Shown: positions 2,933-61,457 of the stretch, piece by piece
Position numbering within the stretch: the first letter of the stretch is position 1
Layout: each line of letters opens with the position of its first letter
DNA from: Candidatus Omnitrophota bacterium
GTDB lineage: Bacteria > Omnitrophota > Gorgyraeia > Aquiviventales > Aquiviventaceae
Reading direction: 5' to 3'
Length of the DNA stretch: 64,000 nucleotides
Assembly (NCBI GenBank): GCA_023247255.1
Contig: JAHFGV010000009.1
Span: 2,773-66,772 of the forward strand
The notes under the pieces: model-generated
The model's input: the letters and a program-made list of their open reading frames with translations, nothing else
Told to the model about the DNA's origin: nothing
The model's database searches: none
Made by a program: the position numbers and the translations under genes

Positions 2933-3476
2933 AGCAAAGAGTATACTCCTTTGCCTGTTCCTGAGTTATTCCTATTATTGCGCTAGAAACTTGATACCGC
3001 CTCTTGTAATCTGTTCTCCCACGCCCCACGTCTCCCGCCCCCTGCCCCTGTCTTTAATTCCCCTTGCCTCTAGTTTTAACTCCCTCGCCCCGTGCACTCA
3101 CGCCTTAAGCGAAGACGAGTTTCTCGGCATTCTATTAGGCTTAAGGGATGTGGAACCGGATACTGTTGTCGTATTCCAGATAAGTGTTGATTTTATCAGA
3201 CAGCTTTCAGAGAAGATTTAAGAGAAGAAAGCCATTAACAGACTGAGGAAGAACCCTTAACCCTGAACCGACTGGTATTTTTCAGCATCCTGTTAGTGCT
3301 CAATCCTCATCCCAAAGATCTTCCATGCTTTTCACGGGTTAGTTTTTTAACCCATCTGTTTTCAAGTAGTTATACATCAAGAAATGTATTTATTAAGTTT
3401 CTTGTCTGAGTTCTGGTACGTAACCTGCTTACATAGACTGTCACAGACTGTCCTAGTAGAAGGAGGCTATAGAAGT

Positions 3477-4723: not shown

Positions 4724-6262
4724 TTGTTTATTGCTGAGGAGATGATGGTTCAAACTGAGACGTCAATTGGCTGGCAGGATTATCTGACGATCGTCTTTCG
4801 TCGTCGGTGGTACTTCCTGATTCCCTGCGCTCTTATCGTTATAGCGATTCTGATCGTCGGGTTTTTCCTTCCCAAGATCTACCGGGCGGAGACGCTGTTG
4901 CTTGTCGAGGAACGGCAGGTGATGAACCCCCTCATTCAAGGGCTTGTCGTTTCCACATCGGTCGATCAGCGGATGCGTATCCTGCGTGAGGAATTGCTTA
5001 GCTGGACGAGCCTCAGCCGTTTGGTGACGGAACTCGGTTTGGACAAAGGCGTCAAAAGTCCCTTGGCTTTTGAACGTCTCATCAAGCGGCTGCAAAAAGA
5101 CATCACCGTGAAAATGCGCGGGCATGATCTGGTCACCGTTTCCTACGAAGAGCAGAATCCTCACCTTGCCCAGAAATTGGTCAACACCATCACTAACCTC
5201 TATATGGAGCGCAACATCCAATCGCAGAGCACCGAGGCGGAGACGGCGATCAGCTTTATTGAAAAGGAATTGGCGATCTATCGGAAGAAGCTGGAGGATT
5301 CGGAGAAGAACTTGCGGGATTTCAAAGAGCTTTACATCACACAGATGCCGGTGGCGAATGAATTAAATCAACAGATCATTCAACTGGAGATTTTCCTGGC
5401 TGGGCTTTTGGTGGATAACACCGAACAGCATCCCACCGTGGTTCAGACGAAACGGCGCATTCAGGAGCTGAGGGAAAAACGAAACTCCGAAATCCGTCGG
5501 GTGGTCGCTCAAGCGGTCGTGGGGGGTGGGGATTCCGAATTTTATCAGCAGATGGCTCAATCGTTGGAGGATCCGGTTGCCGACGAATCCGCTTTAAGCC
5601 CTACGGTCCGCACGGCACGAGAAGCTTATCGAGCTTGGGTCGAGCGCTTGGACAGTCCCTCGACGATTCCCCAGTCTTCCGTTACGCCTGTGCAAGTCAT
5701 TGCTTCTACCCCTAAAGAAGGGGAGCAGCCTTCGTTCGAAGTGATCGGCGGTAACGGAGCTGCCTCCGTTTCTTTAGGTCCCCGCCAGGAGCAAGAACTG
5801 GCGCGTTTGACCCGTGATTATCAGGTGAACCAGTGGAACTACAACAATCTGTCGCAACGCTTGGAGCGTGCCAAGATTACTCAGAGGCTGGGTGAGTCGG
5901 ATGAAGGCACGAAGTTCAAGGTGCTGGAACCGGCCCGTCTACCGCTTAAACCGATACGCCCGAATTTTATAAAACTCTTTTTCCTCGCGCTCTTTTTGGG
6001 TATGAGTATTGGAGCGGGAGTGGCTTTTATCGCCGAATATCTGGACCAGTCTTTTCAATCTGCGGAAGAACTGGAAGCGGCCTTGGCCGTACCCGTTCTG
6101 GGGAGTATTTCCACCATCGTGACCGAAGGGGATATCGAGGCCAGGCGGACGCGCCTGAAAACGTGGGTGTCTTGGAAGATTCAACGGAAACGATTTCAAG
6201 ATCACGTGGTTAGTCCCATCTGGTCTCGCATCGACCGTGTTCTTGTGCGTTTGGGATTGTAA
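4724..6262 (+). CDS. polysaccharide chain-length determinant (PCP/Wzz/GumC-like), kinase domain not fused
   Basis: Two TM helices (res ~30-50 and ~430-450) flank a long coiled-coil periplasmic region; position between Wza and BY-kinase. Confidence 0.75.
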   Translation: MFIAEEMMVQTETSIGWQDYLTIVFRRRWYFLIPCALIVIAILIVGFFLPKIYRAETLLLVEERQVMNPLIQGLVVSTSVDQRMRILREELLSWTSLSRLVTELGLDKGVKSPLAFERLIKRLQKDITVKMRGHDLVTVSYEEQNPHLAQKLVNTITNLYMERNIQSQSTEAETAISFIEKELAIYRKKLEDSEKNLRDFKELYITQMPVANELNQQIIQLEIFLAGLLVDNTEQHPTVVQTKRRIQELREKRNSEIRRVVAQAVVGGGDSEFYQQMAQSLEDPVADESALSPTVRTAREAYRAWVERLDSPSTIPQSSVTPVQVIASTPKEGEQPSFEVIGGNGAASVSLGPRQEQELARLTRDYQVNQWNYNNLSQRLERAKITQRLGESDEGTKFKVLEPARLPLKPIRPNFIKLFFLALFLGMSIGAGVAFIAEYLDQSFQSAEELEAALAVPVLGSISTIVTEGDIEARRTRLKTWVSWKIQRKRFQDHVVSPIWSRIDRVLVRLGL

Positions 6263-7095
6263 TGCAAATGTACGAATCCTTCTACGGTCTTAAAGAAAAG
6301 CCTTTCAGTATGACGCCGGATCCGCGGTATTTCTATCCTTCGGCTAAGCACCAGGATGCGTTAAACCATATGGTCTACGCGATCCAGGAGCGCCGCGGAT
6401 TTGTCGTCGTCACCGGGGACATCGGTTCCGGCAAAACGACCCTCTCGCGCGTTCTCTTCCAGAAGCTGGATCCGGGCACTCAGACAGCGGTCATACGCAA
6501 CACGCAACTGACGGCCAAGGATTTGGTAGCCATGACGTTAGACGAGTTGGAAATTCCGTATGCCCCCGGCAGAACGAAGATGCAATTGATCGGCCTGTTA
6601 AACGAGTTTCTCATCCAACAGCTTAAGGACAATGCCAACGTCGTGCTTTTGATTGATGAAGCACAAAATCTCAAGCCCGCAGTCTTGGAAGAGGTCCGCA
6701 TGCTTTCCAACCTAGAGACGGAGAGGGAAAAGCTCATTCAGATTATCCTCATGGGTCAGCCGGAGCTTAAATCGACTCTGTGGTTAAAGTCGCTCACGCA
6801 ATTGCGTCAGCGCATTACGCTCCATTATCACCTGGCGCCTTTGGGTCAAGCGGAGATGGCGATTTACATTGGCCATCGGCTTCATGTCGCCGGCGCCAAT
6901 GGATTACCCATCTTCCGCTGTGATACCTTCCCGCAGATCTTTCACCACACTCAAGGGGTTCCCCGTCTCATTAACGCGATATGTGATCGGGCGCTTCTGA
7001 CCGGTTACATCAACGAGACCAAGACCATCGGCTCCGACGTCATTGACGAAGTCGCGCGCGAGCTTCCAGCACTGATGGAGCAACCCACCGCATGA
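6262..7095 (+). CDS. ExeA/GspA-like AAA ATPase (XrtA/PEP-CTERM-locus associated ATPase type)
   Basis: Walker A GDIGSGKTT, Walker B VVLLIDEAQ; N-terminal MQMYESFYGLKEKPF typical of ExeA-like proteins; ATG overlaps the preceding stop. Confidence 0.75.
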   Translation: MQMYESFYGLKEKPFSMTPDPRYFYPSAKHQDALNHMVYAIQERRGFVVVTGDIGSGKTTLSRVLFQKLDPGTQTAVIRNTQLTAKDLVAMTLDELEIPYAPGRTKMQLIGLLNEFLIQQLKDNANVVLLIDEAQNLKPAVLEEVRMLSNLETEREKLIQIILMGQPELKSTLWLKSLTQLRQRITLHYHLAPLGQAEMAIYIGHRLHVAGANGLPIFRCDTFPQIFHHTQGVPRLINAICDRALLTGYINETKTIGSDVIDEVARELPALMEQPTA

Positions 7096-7137
7096 ACGTA
7101 ATAAACGTAACACGTGACATGTTCACGTAACACGTAG

Positions 7138-7477
7138 CGAGGAACAGAAAAATACCCCTGGCTATCGGAAACTCCAGGGGTGGCAAGCTGCCATCGTCTG
7201 GCACATGAGGTTTATCGAGTTACCAGAAACTTCCCCCAAGAAGAACGGTTTGGAATAGTTGCCCAATGTAAGATGGGCTGCGCTTTCTGTGCCTACACAT
7301 TTAGTTGAAGGCCATGCTCGTGCTGGAAAACGAGAGCTGAGACGGTTCGTCGCTATGGCGCTCGGTTCGTTGGCAGAAGTCGAGTATCTCTTAGAACTGG
7401 GCTTTTGCAAAAATAGCCAACGCGTTGACCGAGTGTTGTGTCATTTCCCAAGAGAAGGTAATGAGGATTGTGTCATG
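7138..7477 (+). pseudogene. four-helix-bundle protein (23S rRNA intervening-sequence protein family) pseudogene: no start codon, frameshift near 7265, 3' end interrupted by MITE
   Basis: Frame A (7138-7255) reads ...SETPGVASCHRLAHEVYRVTRNFPQEERFGIVAQ. A second frame (7259-) reads VRWAALSVPTHLVEGHARAGKRELRRFVAMALGSLAEVEYLLELGF. Together these align to the intact paralogue at 9570-9932 (…NTIYKLTSTFPKEESYGLISQMRRAAVSVPVNIAEGYARNHRAELRQFLYVALGSLAELETL). Confidence 0.5.
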
Positions 7478-7586
7478 TTTCATGAGTCATGTGTCATGAA
7501 AAAAGCAGAAAATAAACAGGCATATCAAGCACGGCCAAAGTACGCCTTTTGCTTTCCATGACACATAACACATGACTCATGAAACA
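7469..7586. repeat. MITE-like hairpin repeat, copy 1 (arms built from CATGACACA/TGTGTCATG units around a ~58-bp core)
   Basis: Left arm tgtgtcatgtttcatgagtcatgtgtcatg, right arm catgacacataacacatgactcatgaaaca; core near-identical (1-2 mismatches) to reverse complement of 61338-61396. Confidence 0.55.
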
Positions 7587-7661
7587 GACGTGAGCGCTGC
7601 CACTAATCTCGATGCATTTTGCAAAACCTCTGTCACTTGTTACGTGTTACGGGAGTAACGA

Positions 7662-8582
7662 ATGAGCAAAATCACTCAGGCCCTTGAGAAGGCGGCGCGG
7701 GAGAGGCTCCAGCGCGAGAAGGAACAAGTTACAGTCGCTGCCAAGGAAACCACGATTCCCTTGGCCGCTTCGGCTCTTTCCGATATCGCCTCTGCGGGAG
7801 AGATCCAGATCGATTCCCACATTGTGGGAGCTACCGATTCGCAGTCTCCTATCGCTGAGCAATACCGCATCCTGCGCACTAATCTCCAGTCCTTGCGCTT
7901 TCAGTCGAGTCCAAAGGCCATCGTCATCACAAGCTCCGTGCATGGGGAAGGCAAGTCCGTGACTGCCCTCAATCTGGCCTTGGCTTTTTCCCGTCAAGAA
8001 AATCTCCGCGTAGTGCTCGTCGATGGGGATCTGCGCAAGGGTACGATTTGGAAATGGTTAGGTCTGCCTGAGCGTAGCGACGGTCTTGCGAGTGTGCTGC
8101 AAAGTGGCGGCCAGCTTAACGGTTCATTGGTGCGATTGCATCAGCCACCCCTGACGATTCTTCCGGCTGGTCTTGCTCCGGAACATCCTGCTGAGCTTCT
8201 GGAATCTTCCAGTATGAAGCGGCTGATTGGTACGCTGAAGGCTCAGTTCGACTTGGTTCTGATCGACTCTCCTCCTGTGCTTCCGGTTTCCGATCCCGGT
8301 ATTCTGGCCTCTCAGGTGGACGGGGTGTTGTTCGTTGTTCGAGCCGGCAGGACCCAGCGAAAGACGGTGATACAGGCCCAAAATCTCCTCAAGCAGATGA
8401 AGGCAACCTTCTTGGGTTGTGTCTTGACGCATGTGGAGTACTACCTTCCCGGCTATTACCGCTACTACCAGTATCGGTATGGCTCGAAAGAGCAGACAAG
8501 TGGCAAGGGAGTTAAAGACGGGGGCACGGGGCAAGAGACAGGGGGCGAGGGAAGACAAAAAGTACAAAGGAATACAGGTTAA
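7662..8582 (+). CDS. BY-family protein tyrosine autokinase (CpsD/CapB/Wzc cytoplasmic domain type)
   Basis: P-loop SSVHGEGKSVTALNLA, Walker B LVLIDSPPVL, C-terminal tyrosine cluster YYLPGYYRYYQYRYG. Confidence 0.8.
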   Translation: MSKITQALEKAARERLQREKEQVTVAAKETTIPLAASALSDIASAGEIQIDSHIVGATDSQSPIAEQYRILRTNLQSLRFQSSPKAIVITSSVHGEGKSVTALNLALAFSRQENLRVVLVDGDLRKGTIWKWLGLPERSDGLASVLQSGGQLNGSLVRLHQPPLTILPAGLAPEHPAELLESSSMKRLIGTLKAQFDLVLIDSPPVLPVSDPGILASQVDGVLFVVRAGRTQRKTVIQAQNLLKQMKATFLGCVLTHVEYYLPGYYRYYQYRYGSKEQTSGKGVKDGGTGQETGGEGRQKVQRNTG

Positions 8583-8752
8583 AAGATTACAAGATAAGAG
8601 ATGAAAAATACTAGGACCGGTTTTAAAAAAGGACGGGCGATGTCTAACTTTCAAGATTTGTGGGGATCTCTTATCAGTTCCCCCGCCCCCCGCCTCTCAT
8701 CCCCTGCCCCTAGTTTTGACTCCCTCGCCCCACGTCCCTTGCCCCATACTTT

Positions 8753-9541
8753 ATGAGAATGTTGACGTATCTACGTGAACTCTATCGCTACCGGGACCTC
8801 CTCTTCAGCCTAACGGCGCGTGACATTAAGGTGCGCTACCGCCAGACGCTGCTCGGAGTCGCATGGGCGGTTATGCAGCCTCTGGCTTTTATGTTCATCT
8901 TCACCCTGGTGTTTCAGAAATTCGGCAAGGTCAGCTCCGATGGAACCCCCTATCCCTTATTCTCTTATACGGGCCTTGTTCCGTGGACCTTTTTCTCGAC
9001 CAGCCTTGGGCTTGCCGTCAACTCGATTGCAGGCAACATGAGCCTTGTCAAGAAAGTCTATTTCCCCAAAGAGGTTTTTCCCATCGGTGTGGTTCTGGCA
9101 TGCTTCGTGGATTTCCTCATCGCCTCGAGTCTGGTAGGGGGGCTTTTAATGTTCTACCGGTTTCCGGTCAACGTGCAGATAATCTGGATTCCGTGGCTCA
9201 TCGGTCTTGAAATCGTTTTTTTGATCGGTATCAGTCTGCTTGTCTCTAGCCTGAACGTTTTCTTTCGAGACGTTAAATACATCGTTCCCCTGGCGGTGCA
9301 GCTCTTGATGTTCACCACCCCGGTTATCTATCCCACCTCGATGGTGCCTGAGCCTCTGCGGCGCTACTTTCTCCTCAATCCCATGGCTGTTGTTGTCGAT
9401 GGGGTGCGTCGTGTAGTCTTGCACGGACAACCCCCTGAGCTTGGGCCTCTCGTGCTTAGCACGGCGCTTGTCGGTCTCTTCGTTGGTCTCGCCTATGGTT
9501 ACTTCAAGCGCGTCGAAGTACGTTTTGCAGACCTCATCTAA
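8753..9541 (+). CDS. ABC-2 type polysaccharide exporter permease (Wzm-like)
   Basis: N-terminal YRYRDLLFSLTARDIKVRYRQTLLGVAWAVMQP signature of ABC-2 permeases; six predicted TM helices. Confidence 0.8.
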   Translation: MRMLTYLRELYRYRDLLFSLTARDIKVRYRQTLLGVAWAVMQPLAFMFIFTLVFQKFGKVSSDGTPYPLFSYTGLVPWTFFSTSLGLAVNSIAGNMSLVKKVYFPKEVFPIGVVLACFVDFLIASSLVGGLLMFYRFPVNVQIIWIPWLIGLEIVFLIGISLLVSSLNVFFRDVKYIVPLAVQLLMFTTPVIYPTSMVPEPLRRYFLLNPMAVVVDGVRRVVLHGQPPELGPLVLSTALVGLFVGLAYGYFKRVEVRFADLI

Positions 9542-9545
9542 AAGC

Positions 9546-9969
9546 GAGACAGGAGACAGGAGACAAGTGATGAAGCCAATTAAAAGTTACAGGGATCTTG
9601 AAACCTGGCAAGAGGGAATACGTCTTGTGAATACCATCTACAAACTTACCAGTACCTTTCCCAAAGAGGAGAGTTACGGACTCATTAGCCAGATGAGGCG
9701 TGCGGCTGTTTCTGTTCCAGTCAATATAGCGGAGGGGTATGCTCGCAACCACCGGGCGGAATTACGCCAATTCCTCTATGTTGCACTTGGGTCATTAGCT
9801 GAATTAGAAACGCTTAGCATTGTGGCTTGTCAAGTTAGTTATATTGATCAGGCCTGTCTCTCAAGAGAGCTTGAATCGTCCATAGCGGTCTTACGTTTTA
9901 AGACCTTAGCCTTCTTGCGTCATTTGAGGTAGCTTGCCATGTCTCCTGTCTCCTGTCTCCTGTCTCCTG
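9546..9969. mobile_element. hairpin-terminated insertion between wzm and wzt carrying the four-helix-bundle gene; arms are heptamer arrays (GAGACAG)x3 at 9546-9567 and (GTCTCCT)x4 at 9941-9969
   Basis: Arms are reverse complements of each other; right arm supplies the ATG and first ~10 codons (MSPVSCLLSPAP) of the downstream ABC ATPase. Confidence 0.4.
9570..9932 (+). CDS. four-helix-bundle protein (23S rRNA intervening-sequence protein family)
   Basis: MKPIKSYRDLETWQEGIRLVNTIYKLTSTFPKEESYGLISQMRRAAVSVPVNIAEGYARNHRAELRQFLYVALGSLAELETL matches family signature; track start 9441 overlaps wzm and is rejected. Confidence 0.7.
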   Translation: MKPIKSYRDLETWQEGIRLVNTIYKLTSTFPKEESYGLISQMRRAAVSVPVNIAEGYARNHRAELRQFLYVALGSLAELETLSIVACQVSYIDQACLSRELESSIAVLRFKTLAFLRHLR

Positions 9970-11216
9970 CGCCATGTCCCATTACGTTCGATCACGTCTG
10001 GAAACGCTACCGCATAGGCTCCAAACATGACAGCCTCCGCGATGCGATTCCTCGATTCTTTAAGCAAGAGGCCGGACTCAATGGACAATCATTGCACGAA
10101 GGCGAGTTCTGGGCGATTCAGGACGTGACTTTTGAAGTCAAACATGCCGAGACCGTGGGCATCATCGGACCCAATGGGGCGGGCAAGAGTACCGCTTTGA
10201 AACTGCTCTCCAAAATCTGCAAGCAAACGAAAGGACAGATACAAGTGATCGGCCGCCTGGCCGCGTTGATTGAAGTGGGTGCCGGTTTTCATCCTGATCT
10301 GACCGGCCGCGAAAATATTTATCTCAACGGGACCATCATGGGTCTGCGCCGCAAAGAGATCGACCGACTCTTTGATTCGATCGTGGAGTTCTCGGAACTT
10401 AAAGACTTCCTCGAGATGCCCGTGAAGCGTTACTCTTCGGGAATGGCGGTGCGTCTGGGATTTTCGGTCGCCGCTCACGTCAACCCGGAGGTTTTGCTGA
10501 TCGATGAGGTGCTTGCCGTCGGGGATCTCGTTTTTCAGCAGAAATGTTACCAACGCCTGCAGGATCTAAAGGCGGCTGGGACGACAATCGTGTTTATCTC
10601 GCACAACCTGGAGGCGATTCAACGGCTCTGTGACCGCGTTGTTCTCCTGGACAAGGGGCTCCTCATCCAGGAAGGAAATCCGGCCGAGGTCATCGCGGGC
10701 TATCGCAACAAGGTCCTCCAGACATACCGTTCCAAGATGCGCCTGCCGCATGGCAATGTCATCGAGGAACGGTCTCTCGATGAGGTGGCATTCACGCAGG
10801 CTTTTCTCACAGACGCCTCTGGCAATATCTCAGACGCATTCTCTACGGGAGATACCGTCAGATTGCACCTGAGCTACCACGCTAAGCGGAATATCGAGCA
10901 GCCCAGGATTGTGGTTACGATCGAACGCCTCGATGGACTCGTCTGCCACACCACCTCAACCGCACATGCCATAGATGCATTCACTATCTCCGAAGGCGAC
11001 GCTAGCCTGATGTTGGAATACGACGCTTTGAACCTGTTGCCAAACACGTATCGGATTCAGGCAGCCCTCTTCGAACATAACAATCCCGTTCCCTTGTCCG
11101 CATCCAGCTATCAACTCTATTTCACCTTGACCTCAGACAGTCCTGAGATTGGGGCTGTGCATCTCGATCATCACTGGGACACAAAGGTGATTCCTGCAAG
11201 AGACAAAGTCCATTAA
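9939..11216 (+). CDS. ABC transporter ATP-binding protein Wzt-like with ~150-aa C-terminal extension (probable carbohydrate/terminal-cap binding domain)
   Basis: Walker A GPNGAGKST, signature YSSGMAVRLGFS, Walker B LLIDEVLAVGD; residues ~270-425 form an extra domain beyond the NBD. Confidence 0.8.
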   Translation: MSPVSCLLSPAPCPITFDHVWKRYRIGSKHDSLRDAIPRFFKQEAGLNGQSLHEGEFWAIQDVTFEVKHAETVGIIGPNGAGKSTALKLLSKICKQTKGQIQVIGRLAALIEVGAGFHPDLTGRENIYLNGTIMGLRRKEIDRLFDSIVEFSELKDFLEMPVKRYSSGMAVRLGFSVAAHVNPEVLLIDEVLAVGDLVFQQKCYQRLQDLKAAGTTIVFISHNLEAIQRLCDRVVLLDKGLLIQEGNPAEVIAGYRNKVLQTYRSKMRLPHGNVIEERSLDEVAFTQAFLTDASGNISDAFSTGDTVRLHLSYHAKRNIEQPRIVVTIERLDGLVCHTTSTAHAIDAFTISEGDASLMLEYDALNLLPNTYRIQAALFEHNNPVPLSASSYQLYFTLTSDSPEIGAVHLDHHWDTKVIPARDKVH

Positions 11217-25653: not shown

Positions 25654-27120
25654 ATGGCTTTCAAGTCCTTTAACACGGCGATTCCGGTTGCGCTGCAGAC
25701 GCGGCGAGCGCTCCCCACCATTGACCGGCGCATATGGCTCATGGCGGTTTTGGCCTGTGGGTTTGCGGTCTTGGTGATGAAGGAGGTCGCATTGCCTTCA
25801 TCCCTCATCTTAGTTTTTGGGGGGCTGGGACTCTTCGCTTTGTTTGCAGTCGGCCTCCAGAGTCCGGAGATTCCGTTCTACGTGCTGGTTGCTTACCTCC
25901 CGTTTAGCCGTCTACTCGTCGGTGATTTCGGTACCCAGGCGACGGCGCTGAATCTTACCAACATCTTCACCTTAGGGGTGTTCATCGCTCATGTGTTTCG
26001 GCAAGGAGCGCGTGGACAAGCCCCATTTCAATCCACACCGTTGAATCGTATGATCTCGTTGTTCTGCGCCTTAGGGGCGGCCGCTTTGATACGGGCGGGT
26101 TGGGATTATGGTTCCTGGTATGCCTGGCACTATCTCATTCCCCTCAAGCGTTGGCTTACCCCGATGTTTCTTTACTTCCTCACGCTTTGGGTGGTGCGAG
26201 ATAAAAGAGTGCTGAAGACTTCAGCGATCCTCATCATGATCGTCGTGACTCTGGTTGCCCTCATGGCGATTCGGGATTACATGAATGTCGAGGGAAGCGG
26301 CTTTGAAGCCTCGCGCATCGGAGGGATCGCCGAACATTCCAATACCTTGGGGGCTTTCTTCGTCTACTACATGTTTTTACATCTAGGTTTCTTCCTCACC
26401 CACACTTCGAGGCCTCGAGCGTGGCTTTTATTGATTCCGTTTCTGCTTTGCTTCCGGGGAATCATGGTGACATTCTCCCGCGGGGCTTACCTGGCATTCG
26501 CGATAGGATCTCTGGCAGCCTGTTGGTTTCGACATAAGCTCTTGTTCGTTACCGCCGTAGTCGCACTGGTGTTTGCGATTCTCAATCCGACGTTGTTGCC
26601 TTCAGGGATTCGCTACCGGATGGGAATGACGATAATTCATCATGATACGGGTGTGGTTCAAGAGGACATCACGCAGAACCTCGAGGGCAGCTCGGCCTCG
26701 CGTATTGAGATATGGCGCGGAGCGCTCAAGATGATCCAGGATCATCCTTGGTGGGGGGTCGGTTACGAAGCCTTTCCTCGGTTCATGCCAAGTTATACCG
26801 AGGGAAAGATCGGATACATGGACGCCCATAATAGCTATCTCTTAATCGCTGCAGAGATGGGTTTACCGACTCTCGGTGTCTTTCTACTCGTTCTTTTAAT
26901 GATTGGATACTATACCCACTGGCTCTATCGGCATGCCCAGGACAAGGCGTTGAAGGCTATCGCCCTGGGATTCTTGGCGGGGTTGGCCGGGCTGTGGGTG
27001 GCGAATCTCTTCGGTTCACGCATGGACCACGCAGAGGTATCCGGATACTTCTGGATTATTTGTGGCCTTATTATGCGCGGCGTGTTGATTGAGCGGCAGG
27101 AATTAGCACACAGCAAATAG
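25654..27120 (+). CDS. O-antigen ligase/polymerase family membrane protein (Wzy_C-like)
   Basis: ~11 TM helices with a periplasmic loop; DAHNSYLLIAAEMGLPTLGVFLL matches the O-antigen ligase/Wzy_C motif. Confidence 0.65.
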   Translation: MAFKSFNTAIPVALQTRRALPTIDRRIWLMAVLACGFAVLVMKEVALPSSLILVFGGLGLFALFAVGLQSPEIPFYVLVAYLPFSRLLVGDFGTQATALNLTNIFTLGVFIAHVFRQGARGQAPFQSTPLNRMISLFCALGAAALIRAGWDYGSWYAWHYLIPLKRWLTPMFLYFLTLWVVRDKRVLKTSAILIMIVVTLVALMAIRDYMNVEGSGFEASRIGGIAEHSNTLGAFFVYYMFLHLGFFLTHTSRPRAWLLLIPFLLCFRGIMVTFSRGAYLAFAIGSLAACWFRHKLLFVTAVVALVFAILNPTLLPSGIRYRMGMTIIHHDTGVVQEDITQNLEGSSASRIEIWRGALKMIQDHPWWGVGYEAFPRFMPSYTEGKIGYMDAHNSYLLIAAEMGLPTLGVFLLVLLMIGYYTHWLYRHAQDKALKAIALGFLAGLAGLWVANLFGSRMDHAEVSGYFWIICGLIMRGVLIERQELAHSK

Positions 27121-27147
27121 CACACAGCACATGGCAGACACAACGGA

Positions 27148-29631
27148 ATGAAGGGATCCCACTCCGAACTCCAAACTCCGAATTCCGAATCCCGAACTGG
27201 GAAACATGTCCTATATCCCAGCCTGGGTATGATCGTTTCCCAATTCCCAGAGATGCACGAGACGTTCATCATGCGGGAACTGAGCGCGTTGCGCGATGCA
27301 GGAATTCCTCTGCGTATCTATTCATTGAAACGCTGCCGCGATCCTATCGTACATCCGCAAGCGCAAAAACTTCTCGGGTTGACTCGCTATGTGGTATGGA
27401 ACGATGCCGTTGTTTGGGTACGTGCGGCCGGGTTAGTTCTCCGGCGTCCGATGCGGGCGTTCTCGATACTCGGCTGGGTGGTTCGCCATCATTCTGGGAG
27501 GGCTTTCCTTTTGGCAAAGGCGCTCGTGGTATGGGCACAGGCGATTGTAATCGCCGAGAAGATGCGCGAGGAGGGGATTACGCATATCCATGCGCATTGG
27601 GCAACGGTGCCGACGACGGCGGCTGTGATCGCTTCCGATTGGCTGGGTATTCCCTTTAGCTTCACGGCGCACGCGTGGGATATCTTTGTTCGGAATCCAT
27701 CCCTGAAAGAGAAGATACGACTTTCAGCTAGGGTGATGACCTGCACGGATTACAACCGGCGGTTTCTCCAGCACTTGTGTCCGGGAGAGCGAGAGAAGAT
27801 CATCGTGAACTATCACGGCGTGGACCTCGGGAAGTTTCAACAACTACAACAAGAGACAAGAAACAGGGGACAGGGGACATGTTTTGTGTCTCCTATCTCC
27901 CGTCTCCCGTCTCCCGTCTCCTGTCCCGTTTTTCTATCGGTGGGTCGGCTCGTTGAGACCAAAGGCTATCCTGTTCTTTTGGAAGCCTACCGACGGCTGA
28001 AGTCGGAGGGCATGGCGTTTCACGCGGTGATCGTTGGGGAAGGTTGCCTGCGTGATAGGCTGGAACATCAGATTCGTGTGAACCATCTGGCCGATGTCGT
28101 CGAGTTGAGAAACGCGATGGGGCAGGAGGCACTACGCAAGCTCTATCGGGATGCCTTCGCCTTTGTCCTGCCTTGCACCGTTGCTGAAGACGGGGACCGC
28201 GATGGGATTCCGAATGTCATTCTCGAGGCCATGGCTTGTAGTTTGCCGATAGTCTCGACACAGATCTCGGGAATCCCAGAAGCCGTGCAGGATCGCCGCA
28301 GCGGATTGTTGGTTCCACCCAACGATGGGGAAGAGCTCGCTCGCGCCTTGAAACTTTTGCTGCAGCGGCCGAGTTTTGCCCGTGTATTGGGTGACCACGG
28401 GCGAATGTGGGCGGAGTGTACGTTTGACGCCCGCGAGCATATGCAACAACTCGTGGTTCGGATGAGGGGGTTGTTAGAGAAATCTGTTAGACCCGTTAAC
28501 GTCATGTACGTCATTTGGTCGCTGGAGGTCGGTGGGGCAGAGCGTGTTGTGATGACGCTCGCCAGTGGCCTGGACCGTAAGCGGTTTTCTCCGATCGTGG
28601 TGTGTCTCAATCAGGAAGGACGTATGGCGGCCATGCTTAAACAGCAAGGGATTACTGTGATTGCCCTGAACAAGCGTCCGGGAGTCGATTTGGGGATGCT
28701 GGTGCGTCTGGCGTGGTTGATGAGGCAGCATGGCGTGCAAGTTGTGCACGCGCATCTATGGGGAGCGAATCTGTGGGCGCGTATCGCTGCCATGATGGCA
28801 AGGGTACCGGTCGTCATTGTCCACGAACACGGGATGCAGCCTTGGCGAGGAACCTGGCATTTCCGAATCGACCGTTGGCTGGGACGAAGAACGAGCCGGA
28901 TTCTCTTTGCATCCTCGGAAGTCATGCAGAAGTATGGTGCAAAGACGGGGATGGCACAAAGGCGTTGCCTGTGGGTTCCCAATGGAATCGACGGGAGGCC
29001 GCAAGGATTGGATCGTACCCGTTTGCGAGCACGATTGGGTTTTTCCGATGAAGATCGCGTCGTGATCAGTGTCGGCCGACTCTCACCAGAGAAAGGGCAT
29101 GAAGATTTGTTGCTTGCCTTCGCTCAACTGAGGCAACAGGTGCCTCAGGCGCGTTTGGTATTGGTAGGAGACGGGATAGAGCGAGACACGCTCCAGGCGC
29201 TTCAAGCACGCTGTGGACTTAACGGTGAAGTGACCTTCGCGGGAGTGCAGGACGACGTGCGTCCGTGGCTCGCTGCTGCCGACGTCTACGTTCAGCCTTC
29301 GAGGCGGGAAGGTTTGTCACTGGCCGTTCTTGAGGCGATGGCCTTCGGGCTTCCCGTCATCGCGACCCATGTAGGGGATACGGCACGTGTCATTACCGAT
29401 GGAATGACAGGATACCTAGTGCCTGCTCAGCAACCGGAGGTCTTATCGGCTAAGCTCAAGCAGGTTCTCGATCAACGGGATCAGCAAGGAACTTTAGTAG
29501 AGGCGGCCCGCGCGCTTGTGCAGCGTGATTACTCCGAGCGCCAGATGGTGGGGATAGTGGAGAGGGTTTACGAGGAAGAACTCGTCAAAGAAACAATAAT
29601 TAGCACACAGCAATTAGTACACAGCACATAG
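27148..29631 (+). CDS. tandem GT4–GT4 glycosyltransferase (WbdA-like architecture)
   Basis: Two complete GT4 modules: DGIPNVILEAMACSLPIVSTQISGIPEAV (res ~350) and REGLSLAVLEAMAFGLPVIATHVGDTARVI (res ~720). Confidence 0.8.
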   Translation: MKGSHSELQTPNSESRTGKHVLYPSLGMIVSQFPEMHETFIMRELSALRDAGIPLRIYSLKRCRDPIVHPQAQKLLGLTRYVVWNDAVVWVRAAGLVLRRPMRAFSILGWVVRHHSGRAFLLAKALVVWAQAIVIAEKMREEGITHIHAHWATVPTTAAVIASDWLGIPFSFTAHAWDIFVRNPSLKEKIRLSARVMTCTDYNRRFLQHLCPGEREKIIVNYHGVDLGKFQQLQQETRNRGQGTCFVSPISRLPSPVSCPVFLSVGRLVETKGYPVLLEAYRRLKSEGMAFHAVIVGEGCLRDRLEHQIRVNHLADVVELRNAMGQEALRKLYRDAFAFVLPCTVAEDGDRDGIPNVILEAMACSLPIVSTQISGIPEAVQDRRSGLLVPPNDGEELARALKLLLQRPSFARVLGDHGRMWAECTFDAREHMQQLVVRMRGLLEKSVRPVNVMYVIWSLEVGGAERVVMTLASGLDRKRFSPIVVCLNQEGRMAAMLKQQGITVIALNKRPGVDLGMLVRLAWLMRQHGVQVVHAHLWGANLWARIAAMMARVPVVIVHEHGMQPWRGTWHFRIDRWLGRRTSRILFASSEVMQKYGAKTGMAQRRCLWVPNGIDGRPQGLDRTRLRARLGFSDEDRVVISVGRLSPEKGHEDLLLAFAQLRQQVPQARLVLVGDGIERDTLQALQARCGLNGEVTFAGVQDDVRPWLAAADVYVQPSRREGLSLAVLEAMAFGLPVIATHVGDTARVITDGMTGYLVPAQQPEVLSAKLKQVLDQRDQQGTLVEAARALVQRDYSERQMVGIVERVYEEELVKETIISTQQLVHST
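27853..27927. repeat. 75-bp hairpin repeat inserted in frame inside the GT4–GT4 gene (arms gagacaagaaacaggggacaggggaca / tctcctatctcccgtctcccgtctcccgtctcctgtccc)
   Basis: Self-complementary arms around tgttttgtg loop; encodes RNRGQGTCFVSPISRLPSPVSCP linker; same GACAGG/CCTGTC heptamer family as 9546-9969. Confidence 0.5.
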
Positions 29632-29634
29632 CAT

Positions 29635-31128
29635 ATGGCAGACCGCAAACCGAAAACTGCTTCCCAGCCACGTAGGCACGTAGGCACGGATGCACGACGT
29701 GTCTCCTCTGCCTTGTCTGCTCTCCCACGTTTCAAGCGTAAGGTTGTCATGGGGCTGAGCTTATTGCTCATCATCGGTTACGTGGCTAAGCTCGTCGATA
29801 CGCGCTATCCCTGGCTGTGGGCTTACCTGCTGGATCAGATCAGACCTCAGACGGTGCAAGCATCCGCAGGCCCGACCCACGTCCTGTTCACTTTCGTCGA
29901 CCATTTTGAACCGCACGACCAAGCGACCATGGATCGGTGGATGAGCGCTTATCCCCAGATGGCTGCGCGCCATCGCGATGCCGATGGACGTTTTCCGCAA
30001 CACTCGTGGTTTTGGCATTTCAGCTATGCCGATGGATTCGAGACCTTGTCGTACCTGAAGCAGCTGGCCGAGCTTTCTTATCAAGGATTCGGAGAGGTGG
30101 AGCTGCACCTGCACCATGGGCCCGATTCCGAAGAGAGCTTTTTAGAGCTCATGCGCAAGCGCCTGCAACTTTCACGATGGACGGGTTCGATGGTGACGGC
30201 CGAGACAAGGCCACAGACGCATTTTGGATTCATTCACGGATTATGGGCGCTGGACAATTCACGCGGGGGTAAGACCTGCGGTGTCAATAATGAGTTGACG
30301 CTGCTGGCACGTTTAGGCTGCTATGCGGATTTTACGCACCCCTCATGGGGGCCTATGCATCCGCGGATGGTCAATCGGCTTTACTACGCGACGGACGATC
30401 CGATGCGTCCTAAGTCCTATGACCGAGGTCCGGTCATGCAGGTGGGACGCTTACCTATCGGGGACCTGCTCATTTTCGAAGGGCCCAGTGTGGTGCGCTT
30501 GCGCGGTATCAAACCCGTCTATGACCATGGGGATGTGACGCAGGTAGATCTTCCGACCTCCGAGCGCGTCGATGCCTGGGTGCGAACCGGTATTCACGTC
30601 GAGGGACGTCCCGAGTGGGTTTTTATCAAAGTCTACACGCATGGGGCCATTGCGCGAGACCATGAGGCAGTCCTAGGACGCTGGAGCGACCGGATGCATG
30701 AATACCTGGAAGGTCATTACAACGATGGTGAGCGTTACGTCCTGCACTACGTCACGGCCCGCGAGGCCTACAACATCGCCAAGGCTGCGGAGGTGGGTAA
30801 ATCTGGGGATCCCAATGCGTTCCGTGATTTCGTTATCCCTCCCTACGCGAACCGGACCCTCATAGCCTCCGTACCCTATGAGCTCATCAGCGCTGACGAA
30901 GAGAAGTTGTGGGTGCGGTTGCTGACGCCACCCAGCAGTCGTGTAAGTATGCGATTGCATGCGCGCGTCGTTGACGTTTCTGGCGATGCGTCTGACATCG
31001 TGATTGAGCCCACGGATGAAGATACAGGGCTTACTCTCGCCACGACAGGAGAAGGAATCGTAACGTTTGAGTATGAGAGAAGAGGTATCAATCAGCAAGT
31101 AGCACATAGAGCAGATGGTACAAGATGA
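29635..31128 (+). CDS. hypothetical membrane-anchored protein (alternative start 29749)
   Basis: Single TM (MGLSLLLIIGYVAKLV) then large soluble domain with His-rich motifs (ELHLHHG); the region 29635-29748 overlaps a repeat so the true start may be the ATG at 29749. Confidence 0.5.
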   Translation: MADRKPKTASQPRRHVGTDARRVSSALSALPRFKRKVVMGLSLLLIIGYVAKLVDTRYPWLWAYLLDQIRPQTVQASAGPTHVLFTFVDHFEPHDQATMDRWMSAYPQMAARHRDADGRFPQHSWFWHFSYADGFETLSYLKQLAELSYQGFGEVELHLHHGPDSEESFLELMRKRLQLSRWTGSMVTAETRPQTHFGFIHGLWALDNSRGGKTCGVNNELTLLARLGCYADFTHPSWGPMHPRMVNRLYYATDDPMRPKSYDRGPVMQVGRLPIGDLLIFEGPSVVRLRGIKPVYDHGDVTQVDLPTSERVDAWVRTGIHVEGRPEWVFIKVYTHGAIARDHEAVLGRWSDRMHEYLEGHYNDGERYVLHYVTAREAYNIAKAAEVGKSGDPNAFRDFVIPPYANRTLIASVPYELISADEEKLWVRLLTPPSSRVSMRLHARVVDVSGDASDIVIEPTDEDTGLTLATTGEGIVTFEYERRGINQQVAHRADGTR

Positions 31129-32429: not shown

Positions 32430-34730
32430 GTGATGCAACGATATGTGCCGACGATTCTCGTCTTGGTGATAGGTATGAGTTTGGGGTATGGCGTCGCAGC
32501 ATCGGGAGGGCCTGTGCAGGCGTTGCTTCGTCCCATGAAGGCCCTTTCGCATTTGATATCAAGCCCCGGTGATGCGTTGAAGGAGGGGTTAAAACCGCAA
32601 CCCCCATCCTCTTCTGCTTCTGCGAAAAACGCGGTCTTCTGGTTAAGCAGTTTTGAGTCTTCGGAAGAGATCGATAGACGTTGGAAGACTCGCAGTGTCG
32701 TAGCCAAGGTAGATAAACTCCATGCCAGCCATGGACTCTCCGCCGCGCGGTTGACCTATCAGATGGCTACGGCTCCCGCTTTTATGATGGAGAACTACCT
32801 GGATAGTGGACACGGCGATTGGCGGGGCTATGAAGCCCTGGAGTTTGATCTCACCAACGCAAATCCCAGCCAGGAGCGGATGATCCTAAAACTGAAAGAT
32901 CAGGATGGCCGCGGCTACAGCGAGGATATCTTCGTCAATTCAGGCGCATCGCAACATATCCGCGTGCGTCTGGAAGACGTTCAGGGTTACCTCGATCTTT
33001 CGCACGTCATCCAACTCAACCTGTTTCGATGGAAACCGCGCAAGGAGGCGACGTTTTATCTGGATGCCGTGTGCCTGACTCCCGCTGCACAGAGAATACC
33101 CGAATCGGATACGACGGGCTCATCGGGTTCATCAGTGATTCCCGTCTCTGCGGCTGTGACTCCGCAGGAGTCTTGGCAAGTGAAGTGGGTTTCGGGTCTG
33201 ACGAAGGTGTTTCGCGATCCCGCGCTTTTGGAGCAGGCGGCAACACCACCTCTTCGTCTAGCGCTCTCCAAGGGGGAATACGAGAGTGTACAAATCCTTG
33301 TCATTGGAGGAGAGCAGCCCGTTCAAGTGAAAGTTTCCGTTGGGCCACTCACGCATAGCGATGGACAGACCCAGTTTCCCAATGGCGTCGTCGAGATCCG
33401 TCGAGTCGATTACGTAACGACGAAGCAGCCTTACTATCCCGTAACCTTCGTCGGGGATTGGCCGGATCCCTTGCCGAGTGCGGATACGATCGACGTCCCC
33501 GCCGGTCAGGTTCAGCCTATCTGGATCACGGTGGGTGCGCCGACGCACCTTGTGGCCGGTCAATACAACGCGACCATCACCCTCCGCGGTTCGGATGGCC
33601 GTATCGAGCAAATGGAGCTGATCGTCACGCTATGGGACTTCACCCTTCCCCGGACAGCAAGTCTTAAGACAGCTTTTGATTTCTATCCCTCGCGACTCAG
33701 AAAGACCTATCAGGAGTTCGTTCTAGGCGGATCCGTTTGGGAGACTCGCTTAGAAGAATTGCAGCGGCTCTATTACTTGGATATGCTTAAGCACCGCGTT
33801 TCTCCCATTCTGCAAGCGGATCCTTCCAATGCTCGGTTCCAGCAAGAGATTGCCGAATATCTTAACCGTGGACTGAGCGCATTAGGAATTGGCTCCAGAG
33901 GAGGCAGCAACGGCAACAATTGGCCGAAGGATCCTGGGCAACTGGAGCAGGTCATGAGCTGGTATCGCAAGGCGGCTGAGTCCTTGCGTTTTCAACAGCT
34001 ATTGGATTTAGCCTACGTCTATACCTATGATGAGCCTCAGCCCGGAGATCCGAAGGTTGCGCGGGTGATGGCAGCGATTCACCAAGTCGATCCGGCGCTT
34101 AAGAATCTTCTGGTGATGCACTATGCCCCGGATCCTGTGCAGCATGCGGATTGGCTTAAGGATGCCGACATCATTTGCTTGCGTATCGCAAGCTTTGATC
34201 CTGCACAGGCACAGCAGCTCAAAGGGATGGGTAAGGAAGTGTGGATGTACGTCTCATCACCGGCGCATCCTTTTCCGGCGCTTGTCATTGATTATCCGGC
34301 CATCGCCCATCGTATTCTGCCGTGGATGGCCTGGAAGTATGGGGCGACAGGACTGCTCTATTGGTGCGTCGACTTCTGGAACGGAGATCCTTGGCAGGAT
34401 CCGGCAAACTTCAGCAAAGATCAGAACGGAAACGGTGCCTTGTACTACCCCAGCGCCGAAGGGCCGGTACCTTCGATCCGCATGGAGGCTTTGAGGGATG
34501 GCATTGAAGACTATGAATATCTCACTCTCTTGAATACGCTCTTAGAAAGTGCGAAAGGCATGGAGGATTCTGATCCGACTCTATTCGAGCAGGGACGCAA
34601 GCTCGTAGGCGTTGGATCGGATATCGTGGATTCCCTGCGCAGCTACAGCAAGGATCCCGAAAGGCTGTTGGCTTATCGAAAGGCCGTTGCCGAGACGATT
34701 GAGAAACTACAAAGAGTGTTAGCCCGTTAG
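32430..34730 (+). CDS. secreted large hypothetical protein, DUF4091-like/glycoside-hydrolase-like C-terminal region (possible EPS-modifying hydrolase)
   Basis: Signal peptide MMQRYVPTILVLVIGMSLGYGVAAS; C-terminal WMYVSS...LLYWCVDFWNGDPWQDP...ALYYPSAEGPVPSIRMEALRDGIEDYEYL pattern. Confidence 0.45.
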   Translation: MMQRYVPTILVLVIGMSLGYGVAASGGPVQALLRPMKALSHLISSPGDALKEGLKPQPPSSSASAKNAVFWLSSFESSEEIDRRWKTRSVVAKVDKLHASHGLSAARLTYQMATAPAFMMENYLDSGHGDWRGYEALEFDLTNANPSQERMILKLKDQDGRGYSEDIFVNSGASQHIRVRLEDVQGYLDLSHVIQLNLFRWKPRKEATFYLDAVCLTPAAQRIPESDTTGSSGSSVIPVSAAVTPQESWQVKWVSGLTKVFRDPALLEQAATPPLRLALSKGEYESVQILVIGGEQPVQVKVSVGPLTHSDGQTQFPNGVVEIRRVDYVTTKQPYYPVTFVGDWPDPLPSADTIDVPAGQVQPIWITVGAPTHLVAGQYNATITLRGSDGRIEQMELIVTLWDFTLPRTASLKTAFDFYPSRLRKTYQEFVLGGSVWETRLEELQRLYYLDMLKHRVSPILQADPSNARFQQEIAEYLNRGLSALGIGSRGGSNGNNWPKDPGQLEQVMSWYRKAAESLRFQQLLDLAYVYTYDEPQPGDPKVARVMAAIHQVDPALKNLLVMHYAPDPVQHADWLKDADIICLRIASFDPAQAQQLKGMGKEVWMYVSSPAHPFPALVIDYPAIAHRILPWMAWKYGATGLLYWCVDFWNGDPWQDPANFSKDQNGNGALYYPSAEGPVPSIRMEALRDGIEDYEYLTLLNTLLESAKGMEDSDPTLFEQGRKLVGVGSDIVDSLRSYSKDPERLLAYRKAVAETIEKLQRVLAR

Positions 34731-34790
34731 CGCGTTTGCGAATTGGCGGGTTTGCGGGTTTAGGATTTTAACGCACCAACGCGCTAGCCA

Positions 34791-59869: not shown

Positions 59870-61302
59870 CGGTTGCTGTTGCGCTCTCAGGATCGGTCCA
59901 TACGCTGGAGGGTTGGGCGTCTCAGAAATCTGTGTCTGATGTGTTTGGAGATAGCTGGGCCGGACGTCGAGTCACCGTCTTGGGGTTGGCCAGAAGTGGC
60001 GTTGCTGCGGCTGAGTTGCTTTGTCGAATCGGTTGTCGGGTGGGGCTTTCGGAGCTTCGGGATACGCCGGCCACACGCTCGGCGCAGGCGATACTGCGAG
60101 AACGAGGCATAGAGGTTGTAGAACTCGGGGGGCACTCTCGAGAGCTCATTACCGCATCGGATCTCGTGGTGGTCAGCCCTGGGATTTCGGAGACTGCCGA
60201 GCCTGTTGTGTGGGCCCGTGAGCTGGGATTGCCGGTCTTAAGCGAGATTGAGCTGGCCTTTCATTTCTGTCCGGTACCAGTCGTCGCTGTCACCGGCACT
60301 AACGGAAAGAGTACCGTGGTGACGCTCATTGCCGAAGTTCTGCGCAGTTGTGGCAGGCAAGCGATCGCCTGCGGCAACTTAGGCCTTCCTTTTTCAGCCG
60401 TGATCGGACGATTCGGTCCCAAGGGTATTGCAGTGGTAGAGGTTAGTTCTTTTCAGCTTCTTCATTGTGAGCGCTTTCGACCCCGTATTGGAGTCCTGTT
60501 AAATCTGGGTACCAACCACCTTGACCGCCATCCGAATTGGCAAACCTATTGTGAAGCCAAACGGCGGCTGTTCCAAGCGCAAACCCAAAAGGATTGGGCG
60601 GTGCTCAACGGGACCGATACCTCGGTCGTGGCGTTGGGTGAGGGACTGCTCGCTCAGCGCGTGTGGTTCGGTCAGAATCGGTCCAATGGCCCCGATTGGT
60701 TTCTGAGTCCCAAGACCCAGGCCAGTTTATCTGAGACGGCACAGGCGGTCCTTCAGGTGGCGCGGATTCTCGATATCCCGGATCCGTTGACCTGGCAGGT
60801 GATTCGTTCGTTTCGGGGATTGGAACATCGATTGGAGCCTGTGGCGACGATCCGCGGGATTCGATTCATCAACGATTCTAAATCGACCACACCGGAAAGC
60901 CTGCTGTATGCCTTGAAACGTCTTTCCGGGGAACTGGTGTTGATCATCGGAGGAAGGGACAAGGGTTTAAACTTCCAGCCGTTGATTGCCGCGCTTAAAG
61001 AGCCGCGCATCAAGGGACTGGTGTTGATCGGAGAATCCCGTCGCAGACTTCGTCAGTTACTGGATGAGGCTCTCCTCGCTGAGTTTGTCTCTCATGGTCG
61101 ATCCGTTGGCGCATCCTCTCGTTCTGTTTGGCAAGTGCGCGAATGCGACTCGTTGGAACAGGCCCTTGAGGCTGCGATTTCTCTGGCTCATCCGGGGACC
61201 ACGGTGCTGTTTTCTCCCGCGTGCGCCAGCTTTGACATGTTCCAGGATTTCGAACAACGAGGCCAGCGTTTCAAGGCAATCGTGCAGAAGCTGGTGTCAT
61301 GA
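59866..61302 (+). CDS. murD: UDP-N-acetylmuramoylalanine–D-glutamate ligase
   Basis: VVAVTGTNGKSTV P-loop, N-terminal Rossmann VTVLGLARSG. Confidence 0.85.
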   Translation: MTVAVALSGSVHTLEGWASQKSVSDVFGDSWAGRRVTVLGLARSGVAAAELLCRIGCRVGLSELRDTPATRSAQAILRERGIEVVELGGHSRELITASDLVVVSPGISETAEPVVWARELGLPVLSEIELAFHFCPVPVVAVTGTNGKSTVVTLIAEVLRSCGRQAIACGNLGLPFSAVIGRFGPKGIAVVEVSSFQLLHCERFRPRIGVLLNLGTNHLDRHPNWQTYCEAKRRLFQAQTQKDWAVLNGTDTSVVALGEGLLAQRVWFGQNRSNGPDWFLSPKTQASLSETAQAVLQVARILDIPDPLTWQVIRSFRGLEHRLEPVATIRGIRFINDSKSTTPESLLYALKRLSGELVLIIGGRDKGLNFQPLIAALKEPRIKGLVLIGESRRRLRQLLDEALLAEFVSHGRSVGASSRSVWQVRECDSLEQALEAAISLAHPGTTVLFSPACASFDMFQDFEQRGQRFKAIVQKLVS

Positions 61303-61450
61303 AAGACTGTTTCATGTTTCATGTGTCATGAGTCATGGAAAGCAAAAGGCGTACTTTGGCCGTGCTTGAGATGCCTGTTTATTTTCTGCTTTTTTCATGA
61401 CACATGAACCATGACACAGCCCTTATTACTTCTCTTGGAACATGACACAA
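61297..61450. repeat. MITE-like hairpin repeat, copy 2 (inverted relative to copy 1), occupying the whole murD–ftsW spacer
   Basis: 61338-61396 equals reverse complement of 7501-7560 with 1-2 mismatches; flanking TGTGTCATG/CATGACACA arrays; murD stop lies in the first unit. Confidence 0.55.
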
Positions 61451-61457
61451 CACTGAT

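Follow-up and report, generated by a model that had tools for sequence, protein, structure and literature searches.

We asked what occupies the 566-bp spacer at positions 7096-7661 of a 64,000-nt stretch of a Candidatus Omnitrophota genome (the window), where it parts an ExeA-like AAA_22 ATPase gene from a gene for a bacterial tyrosine kinase (BY-kinase)-like protein. An initial annotation had read it as the product of successive insertions, namely a decayed gene for a four-helix-bundle (4HB) protein and a miniature inverted-repeat transposable element (MITE), bracketed by inverted repeats. Our analysis favors, with a probability of roughly 0.6, the view that the spacer is the decayed remnant of a 4HB cassette of the intervening sequence (IVS) type, whose paired arms would be cut by RNase III and which would spread as a unit. 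The cassette is a promoterless unit of about 430 bp in which a 4HB open reading frame (ORF) would lie between two inverted arrays of tandem heptamers.

The second 4HB gene copy proposed for the spacer was borne out in two reading frames. The frame at 7180-7308 aligned to positions 9 to 36 of the PF05635 profile (E value = 1e-4), and the frame at 7259-7561 aligned to positions 35 to 79 (E value = 1e-9, above the gathering score); a failure of these frames to align to 4HB hidden Markov models would have refuted the initial annotation. Furthermore, a tblastn search with the intact paralogue described below recovered 7148-7390 as the only extra copy in the window (42% identity, E value = 4e-15). 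The copy was correctly said to lack a start codon, as no ATG, GTG, or TTG could be read in frame between 7118 and 7190. It is frameshifted, but the single shift originally counted proved to be two in an alignment with orthologues (−1 near 7190 and +1 near 7268), with an in-frame TAG at 7256-7258 besides. Comparison of the spacer with two other assemblies, over 522 and 325 nt, gave 0 mismatches, and the gene is therefore truly dead rather than the product of an error in a single assembly. By itself, this copy is a dead relic of limited interest. What follows the hairpin, up to the right arm, is only weakly similar to the orthologues and may be what is left of the 3′ end of the gene.

The arms of the cassette are tandem arrays with a period of 7 nt (Tandem Repeats Finder [TRF], 7105-7136), so that heptamers precede the ORF start, as expected of an IVS-type element. 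The bracketing of the spacer by ACGTAACACGT repeats and their complement was present with slightly shifted coordinates (7105-7135 and 7635-7652): ACGTAACACGT occurs exactly at 7105-7115 and 7125-7135, its complements with one mismatch lie at 7635-7645 and 7642-7652, and ttacgtgttacg stands at 7640-7651, one base away from its annotated position. With at most one mismatch, ACGTAACACGT was found 7 times in the window against an expectation of 0.24, and none of 100 shuffled sequences reached 7. The best inverted pair joined 7123-7148 to 7629-7654 (26 nt, 81%), and the arms formed the closing stem in the minimum-free-energy fold of 7090-7670 (z = −5.9); the arms of the decayed copy are thus predicted still to pair. 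Where we depart from the initial annotation is in the nature of these flanks. They are degenerate tandem heptamer arrays and not simple inverted repeats of fixed sequence; the array sequence differs between cassettes while both arms of each cassette stay complementary. A solo array at 41769-41786, between co-directional genes (40991-41755 and the next ORF), holds the exact right-arm 12-mer TTACGTGTTACG.

Next, we compared the junction with its orthologues among 49 related loci. Two of them (L004 and L006) carried an intact 4HB ORF (135 and 126 amino acids [aa]; TIGR02436 E values = 4e-31 and 7e-30) at the same exeA-kinase junction, alignable with the window spacer at the DNA level. In L004, the gene starts at an ATGA whose equivalent in the window, an ATG at 7092-7094 overlapping the exeA-like stop, opens an ORF of only 12 codons when the sequence is read. 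The orthologous ORFs lie between inverted (GTGACAA)n arrays of 32 nt that are 88% complementary and 371 to 389 nt apart. The window has ACGTAAC/GTTACGT where the orthologues use AAGTGAC/GTCACTT, indicating that both arms changed together, and a consensus fold of the three orthologues gave 19 closing pairs, 2 of them compensatory, a weak signal with three sequences. The closest relative (L003) had only a solo array of the right-arm type, (ACGTGTC)2(ACGTGTT)2, and L011 had an array remnant, while the junctions of the sister lineages L007, L008, and L013 measured 21 to 30 nt. In a neighbor-joining tree of ExeA plus kinase (no bootstrap), all cassettes and traces fell into one clade. This distribution of sequences is consistent with the cassette having been gained once, long ago, by an ancestor of the clade and having later decayed or been lost.

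The comparison with the element at 9546-9969, which had also been recommended, revealed an intact paralogous cassette. Its ORF matched PF05635 (E value = 2e-32) and TIGR02436 (E value = 1e-29) and lies between inverted (GAGACAG)n arms that are perfectly complementary over 20 nt (TRF copy number, 2.9); in the fold of 9530-9990, the two arrays paired as a closing stem (z = −3.5). The nearest solved structure to the encoded protein was 2gsc (XCC0516; E value = 2e-21). No counterpart of this cassette was found in any relative examined, and at the permease-abcA junctions of L010 and L011 there was an ordinary gene of about 250 aa without inverted arms. The right arm, (TGTCTCC)x4 at 9939-9975, supplies the ATG and about the first 12 codons (MSPVSCLLSPAPC) of the gene for an ATP-binding cassette (ABC) transporter ATPase. 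In relatives without the cassette, this ATPase begins MGQTLHPIEF or MHPIEL, and the insertion therefore replaced the original start of the gene. Cassettes can thus donate a start codon and N-terminal residues to a downstream gene.

The spacer cassette was itself interrupted by a hairpin (Table 1). The 118-bp hairpin reported at 7469-7586 exists, but it is the inner part of a longer element that, rather than abutting the 3′ end of the 4HB gene, interrupts its last third. The arms of this copy (copy A) span 34 nt with 82% complementarity (96% over the inner 23 nt), have a period of 7 in both arms by TRF, and fold with an energy of −56.6 kcal/mol (z = −4.65). Copy B is nearly identical (98.4%, with one mismatch, over a 64-nt core; 95% over 101 nt). 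The stretch of about 157 nt at 7432-7588 had no counterpart in the orthologous cassettes of L004 and L006; this absence and the second copy at murD-ftsW indicate that the hairpin was inserted into the 4HB cassette later. The successive insertions first proposed, of a 4HB element and then of a second small element, are therefore supported by the intact orthologues, the 21- to 30-nt sister junctions, and the distribution of the hairpin. Its designation as a MITE was not upheld. The flanks of copy A (..TTGACCG/ACGTGAG..) and copy B (..CATATC/TCTTTC..) shared no target-site duplication, the arms are heptamer arrays, and a search of the window plus a 3.5-kb extension (about 68 kb of this genome) found neither a transposase near the hairpin nor a parent transposon, and neither there nor in 145 other loci any hairpin copy beyond A and B. 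The motif AGTGTTGTGTCATG opens the left extension of both copies and is found again right on top of the start codon of mraZ (window position ~52400; L143 2540-2560).

Table 1. Coordinates, in the window, of the spacer components, its neighbors, and the related elements
Feature	Position	Strand	Remarks
ExeA-like AAA_22 ATPase gene (upstream operon gene)	6262..7095	+	TGA stop at 7093-7095
Left arm, ACGTAAC-type tandem heptamer array	7105..7148	+	TRF 7105-7136, 4.7 copies, then inverted-repeat arm 7123-7148
4HB (PF05635/TIGR02436, "S23p") pseudogene	7139..7431	+	C-terminal third lost or interrupted
Nested hairpin repeat, copy A	7432..7588	+	TCATGNN-type heptamer arms 7469-7502 and 7553-7586; ~50-nt core
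Stretch between hairpin and right arm	7589..7628	+	Weak similarity in orthologue alignment
Right arm, complement of left array	7629..7654	+	ACTTGTTACGTGTTACGG at 7635-7652
BY-kinase-like P-loop protein gene (AAA_31/ParA-type; downstream operon gene)	7662..8582	+	
Intact 4HB cassette	9546..9969	+	(GAGACAG)x3 at 9546-9565, ORF 9570-9932, (TGTCTCC)x4.3 at 9940-9969
Hairpin repeat, copy B	61294..61454	−	Between murD and ftsW, orientation opposite to copy A

To place the locus in a wider context, we scanned metagenomes with a four-sequence 4HB alignment as the query (an alignment of eight proteins was too diverse) and obtained 80 loci with 74 testable genes, using 252 other ORFs of the same loci as controls. 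The best flanking inverted-repeat score had a median of 16.5 for the 4HB genes and 7.5 for the controls, and it exceeded 12.5, the 99th percentile of the controls, in 57 of 74 4HB genes versus 3 of 252 controls (Mann-Whitney test, P value = 2e-30). Both flanks were periodic: identity at a lag of 7 nt was 0.41 in both flanks versus 0.25 in controls, and a lag of 7 or 14 nt ranked highest in 52/74 left and 48/74 right flanks, compared with 5/74 in coding sequences and 10/119 at a distance of 500 nt. The commonest left heptamer was the complement of the right one in 23 of 74 loci, versus 0.9% across loci, although the arms as a whole held 60 distinct heptamers. Arms had a median length of 29 nt and lay a median of 406 nt apart, with a G-rich left and a C-rich right arm in 51 of 54 cassettes. 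Where the neighbors were co-directional, the 4HB gene was in sense orientation 36 times and antisense twice (P value = 5e-9), with a median gap to the neighbors of about 50 nt.

The occupied junctions that we could identify were nuoC-nuoD, guaB-guaA, DUF1385-prfA, carA-carB, and T2SS-F-pilin. Five cassettes of the GAATCAT type, with proteins 72 to 80% identical, were found in unrelated junctions (among them carA-carB, T2SS-F-pilin, and one beside an M23 peptidase gene), and their DNA homology began and ended exactly at the arrays, indicating that the unit of spread includes the arms. The dN/dS ratio between related 4HB copies was 0.08 to 0.14, indicating that the 4HB protein is generally functional. 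The same design was present in Nostoc punctiforme, Calothrix brevissima, Geminocystis, and Picosynechococcus PCC 7003, and with an 8-nt period in Gemmatirosa. In Picosynechococcus sp. PCC 7003, the 4HB cassette is carried by a plasmid (L135 672-1070), where it separates cas10/cmr2 from cmr3 and has arms of the (AGGAGAT) type; this may explain why a large clustering study counted a "23S rRNA IVP" among the proteins linked to CRISPR.

How such a cassette might work can be outlined by combining these observations. The spacer cassette stands in sense between exeA and the kinase gene; in this lineage its coding capacity was lost, and the hairpin was then inserted. In the polycistronic transcript, the arms would pair into a long stem that closes a loop holding the ORF, and RNase III would cut the stem, as it does in the members that reside in rRNA. 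This cut would part the upstream cistron from the downstream one and, where the copy is intact, would release a 4HB message. The cassette as a unit, arms included, would spread without needing a recognizable transposase; that it is or was mobile we infer from its occurrences. No sigma-70-like promoter was found in 6900-10100, the spacer included, which fits co-transcription, and no terminator was found in the spacer, the two terminator-like sites of the same scan being no more than chance would give. The earlier statement that the spacer carries the upstream region of the kinase gene is consequently true only in the trivial sense that the Shine-Dalgarno sequence GGGAG (7651-7655) overlaps the right arm.

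Several observations weigh against this interpretation. Cleavage of the cassette stem by RNase III is proposed purely by analogy, the stem of the spacer cassette is imperfect (81% over 26 nt), and its covariation comes from three orthologues only. In Coxiella, moreover, the S23p ORF is reported to be decaying and its protein is probably not made (PMC4990558). Among the surveyed arms, 60 mismatches were G.U compatible and 59 were A.C; this lack of a G.U excess gives no sign of selection on the sense RNA, and complementarity could instead be preserved in the DNA itself, template switching from one arm to the other being one possible route. Finally, heptamer hairpins without a 4HB gene are frequent in this genome (27863-27925, murB-ddl, and downstream of ddl), so that the arrays may be an independent feature inside which 4HB genes merely sit.

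The arrays without a 4HB gene took several forms. At 27863-27925, a short-loop hairpin, (ACAGGGG)2 ... (GTCTCCC)5, lies in frame within an 827-aa glycosyltransferase-like ORF (27148-29631), and arrays of the 14-mer AATTAGCACACAGC at 27104-27140 and 29598-29626 flank this same 2.5-kb ORF as direct rather than inverted repeats. The kinase-permease spacer contains inverted G-rich/C-rich arrays (8494-8552 and 8680-8745; 25-nt arms, 88% complementary, 168-nt loop), the C-rich part of which resembles 3010-3098 by eye. In the dcw cluster, there is a solo (ATTGTCG) array at murG-murC (window 63726-63749), an inverted (GGTTCGG)/(CCCTGAA) pair at murB-ddl, and an inverted (ATTTTCG)/(CAATCGA) pair after ddl (L143 16183-16272 and 17474-17529). 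Tandem arrays with an 8-nt period were seen at 29669-29696, 34718-34761, and 44245-44306 (CACGTAGG, GTTTGCGG, and AACCCGCA). We considered whether the short-loop hairpins are internally deleted cassettes, and this was not supported: a six-frame hmmsearch with filters off gave no 4HB match below an E value of 0.5 in 7460-7600, 61290-61460, 8500-8760 (with no detectable signal in the 168-nt loop), 27850-27935, L007, or L045.

Other accounts of the spacer have to be set beside the IVS-type cassette. It could be a purely DNA-level selfish element, similar to a MITE or a REPIN, whose arms are recombination or hairpin substrates for some trans-acting enzyme and whose RNA stem is a by-product with no role in the operon. 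Such an element would be copied whole, with edges that coincide sharply with the arrays, would occupy unrelated, ancestrally contiguous operon junctions, and would leave arm mismatches without a G.U bias, all as observed, and the nested hairpin in two near-identical, oppositely oriented copies agrees with it as well. However, no transposase, integrase, or HUH gene was associated with the cassettes, target-site duplications were missing around the hairpin copies, and arms that differ between cassettes, with their 60 heptamers, argue against sequence-specific recognition by one enzyme. The sense bias and the arm polarity of the survey, in turn, suggest that transcription or translation constrains the cassettes. 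We regard this account as unlikely, if worth keeping in mind, and it is compatible with the IVS-type cassette, since it concerns origin more than function.

An insertion-free history is harder still to reconcile with the data. Here the 4HB gene would be an ordinary, vertically inherited small gene around which arrays arose by in-place slippage and became complementary by quasipalindrome template switching. The heptamer arrays that occupy numerous junctions here and in related genomes without a 4HB gene would then be expected, as would the over-representation of heptamer repeats in bacteria noted in PMC4692102. Yet the same cassette lineage and heptamer family appear at unrelated junctions, conserved gene pairs are split (nuoC-nuoD, guaB-guaA, carA-carB, and cas10-cmr3), the sister-lineage junctions are short, and the cassette at 9546-9969 has no counterpart in relatives and replaced the start of the ABC ATPase gene, all of which makes this history quite improbable. 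Least credible, and already disfavored, is the idea that ACGTAACACGT is a transcription factor operator for the kinase gene, in which the DNA would loop between two directly repeated sites behind exeA and an inverted pair ahead of the kinase gene. The over-representation of the motif and its recurrence at another gene junction (41769-41786) would suit an operator, but orthologous cassettes have GTGACAA in its place and keep their arm complementarity, 4HB genes at large show this geometry with 60 unrelated heptamers, and the spacer has no promoter-like site.

The neighbors of the spacer are two polysaccharide-export genes, and the best ExeA relatives were 77 to 79% identical, all from Omnitrophota metagenome-assembled genomes. 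Other 4HB and related genes occur around this operon in relatives. In both L006 and L010, a 4HB gene occupies the kinase-permease junction; that of L006 (7940-9112) lacks a stop and continues through the right arm into the permease gene as an ORF of 390 aa, which could be a genuine fusion or stem from an error in sequencing. At the exeA-kinase junction of L010 (737-1182), a GxxExxY gene (TIGR04256, E value = 7e-38) is bracketed by inverted arms of 34 nt that are separated by 378 nt. GxxExxY genes of Sphingomonas (fabD/fabG), Bernardetia, and Treponema show the same design (L142 462-898, L140 463-913, and L139 443-903), and the Treponema arm has the motif CACGGATTCG in common with L010. The arrangement of these sequences points to GxxExxY as a second cargo family in such cassettes.

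Searches of general libraries added little. At gathering thresholds, Rfam had no match in the window, rRNA included, and the one miRNA match of a permissive scan of 7050-7700 was rejected as spurious (E value = 0.05; 23 bits versus 211). The PADLOC defense-system library had no matches, and the PHROGs phage library had only a weak one to Avd. Independent assemblies of this genome (contig ends of L001, L002, L144, and L145) ended at window positions 7420 and 7617, beside hairpin copy A, and inside copy B, where two Logan contigs break. Contig ends at both copies are what would be expected if assemblies break where a sequence is palindromic or repeated, and they suggest that such repeats fragment short-read assemblies.

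The interest of these results lies in the general pattern and not in this copy. Cassettes split conserved operons and can yield misleading associations, such as that of 4HB genes with CRISPR loci. The origin and purpose of the 23S rRNA IVSs, the S23p/4HB proteins encoded in them, and the heptameric repeats found in cyanobacteria and in Xanthomonas have been puzzles since about 1990, and this locus and the 74 surveyed loci suggest that the three are connected. A unit with an ORF in a heptamer stem, present in sense in many mRNA operons across phyla and under purifying selection, can be tested in culturable hosts, including Nostoc punctiforme, Picosynechococcus PCC 7003 (cas10/cmr3), and Xanthomonas campestris (XCC0516). 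A bolder reading, which we offer tentatively and hold to be somewhat doubtful, is that 4HB genes and apparently also GxxExxY genes are the cargo of promoterless insertion cassettes that span phyla, are bounded by inverted tandem arrays (mostly of 7 nt), and enter operon junctions in sense; that one phenomenon underlies the S23p IVSs, the short tandemly repeated repetitive (STRR) arrays of cyanobacteria, and the heptamer hairpins of Xanthomonas; and that the Avd-like 4HB protein acts on its own arms, whether to move the cassette, to maintain it, or to process its RNA. The descriptive part was observed in the loci examined, and the functional link between protein and arms may exist. In the literature that we searched, whose coverage was incomplete so that a prior description is possible, we found no earlier account of 4HB genes in inverted heptamer arrays outside rRNA.

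Several known systems share part of this anatomy. The nested hairpin resembles MITEs in being small and noncoding, with inverted arms and at least two copies, but differs in its lack of a target-site duplication or parent transposon, its heptamer-array arms, and its two copies in about 68 kb. Repetitive extragenic palindromic (REP) elements and REPINs are short palindromic repeats at operon junctions, with a small gene between inverted copies, and spread without a classical transposon structure. The 4HB cassette is likewise a small gene between inverted repeats at operon junctions; unlike in a REPtron, however, the enclosed gene encodes a four-helix bundle and not an HUH/Y1 (RAYT) transposase, the arms are tandem arrays instead of a fixed palindrome of about 20 nt, and no single arm sequence is amplified genome-wide. 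A REPtron consists of a RAYT gene flanked by inverted REPs.

Closer in sequence are the intergenic 7-nt arrays of Xanthomonas (GGGAATC) and of Nostoc and Calothrix (STRR, GGGGAYT), which, according to PMC4692102, are transcribed, include convergent pairs, and are treated as simple repeats that form G-quadruplexes. A supplementary table of that work places one GGGAATC array across the start codon of XCC0516, which adjoins accB. In the text consulted, the arrays are not tied to this protein family, and neither the paper nor its supplements use the terms "S23," "four helix," or "intervening." The arrays of our window are also intergenic with a 7-nt period and often form closely spaced inverted pairs able to fold into stem-loops, but the heptamer varies by cassette, and many are not G-rich enough for quadruplexes. 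The protein has a distant homologue in Avd, the accessory protein of diversity-generating retroelements (NF033474 E value = 2e-5; PHROG 3206 E value = 2e-7; PF22296 weak), and Avd and 4HB proteins are reported to have the same pentameric four-helix-bundle fold (PMC10053308). The NF033474 match of 24 to 25 bits is nevertheless far from the cut-off of 80, and among the neighbors (exeA-like, BY-kinase, and ABC transporter genes) there was no sign of a reverse transcriptase or of template/variable repeats, at neither of which a scan was aimed.

The closest likeness is to the 23S rRNA IVSs with an S23p ORF, known from Coxiella burnetii, Leptospira, Brucella, and Xanthomonas (PMC4990558). The Coxiella IVS, whose origin and function have been called unclear, measures 428 nt and contains an S23p ORF immediately preceded by two or three GACAGAT heptamers in tandem, as well as a terminal inverted-repeat stem of 28 bp, which RNase III cuts in mid-stem (PMC4990558). 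The cassettes described here lie between protein-coding genes of an mRNA operon and not in helix 25 or 45, their excision by RNase III would be analogous to what is known for the rRNA members, and the surveyed 4HB ORFs are under purifying selection (dN/dS ~0.1), in contrast to the decaying Coxiella ORF. What the two have in common is a PF05635/TIGR02436 ORF that is prone to decay, a size of about 430 nt, tandem heptamers directly upstream of the start codon, and complementary termini giving a stem of 20 to 30 bp with the ORF in its loop. As judged from sequence, the anatomy of the cassette is that of the Coxiella 23S rRNA IVS, placed here in an mRNA operon.

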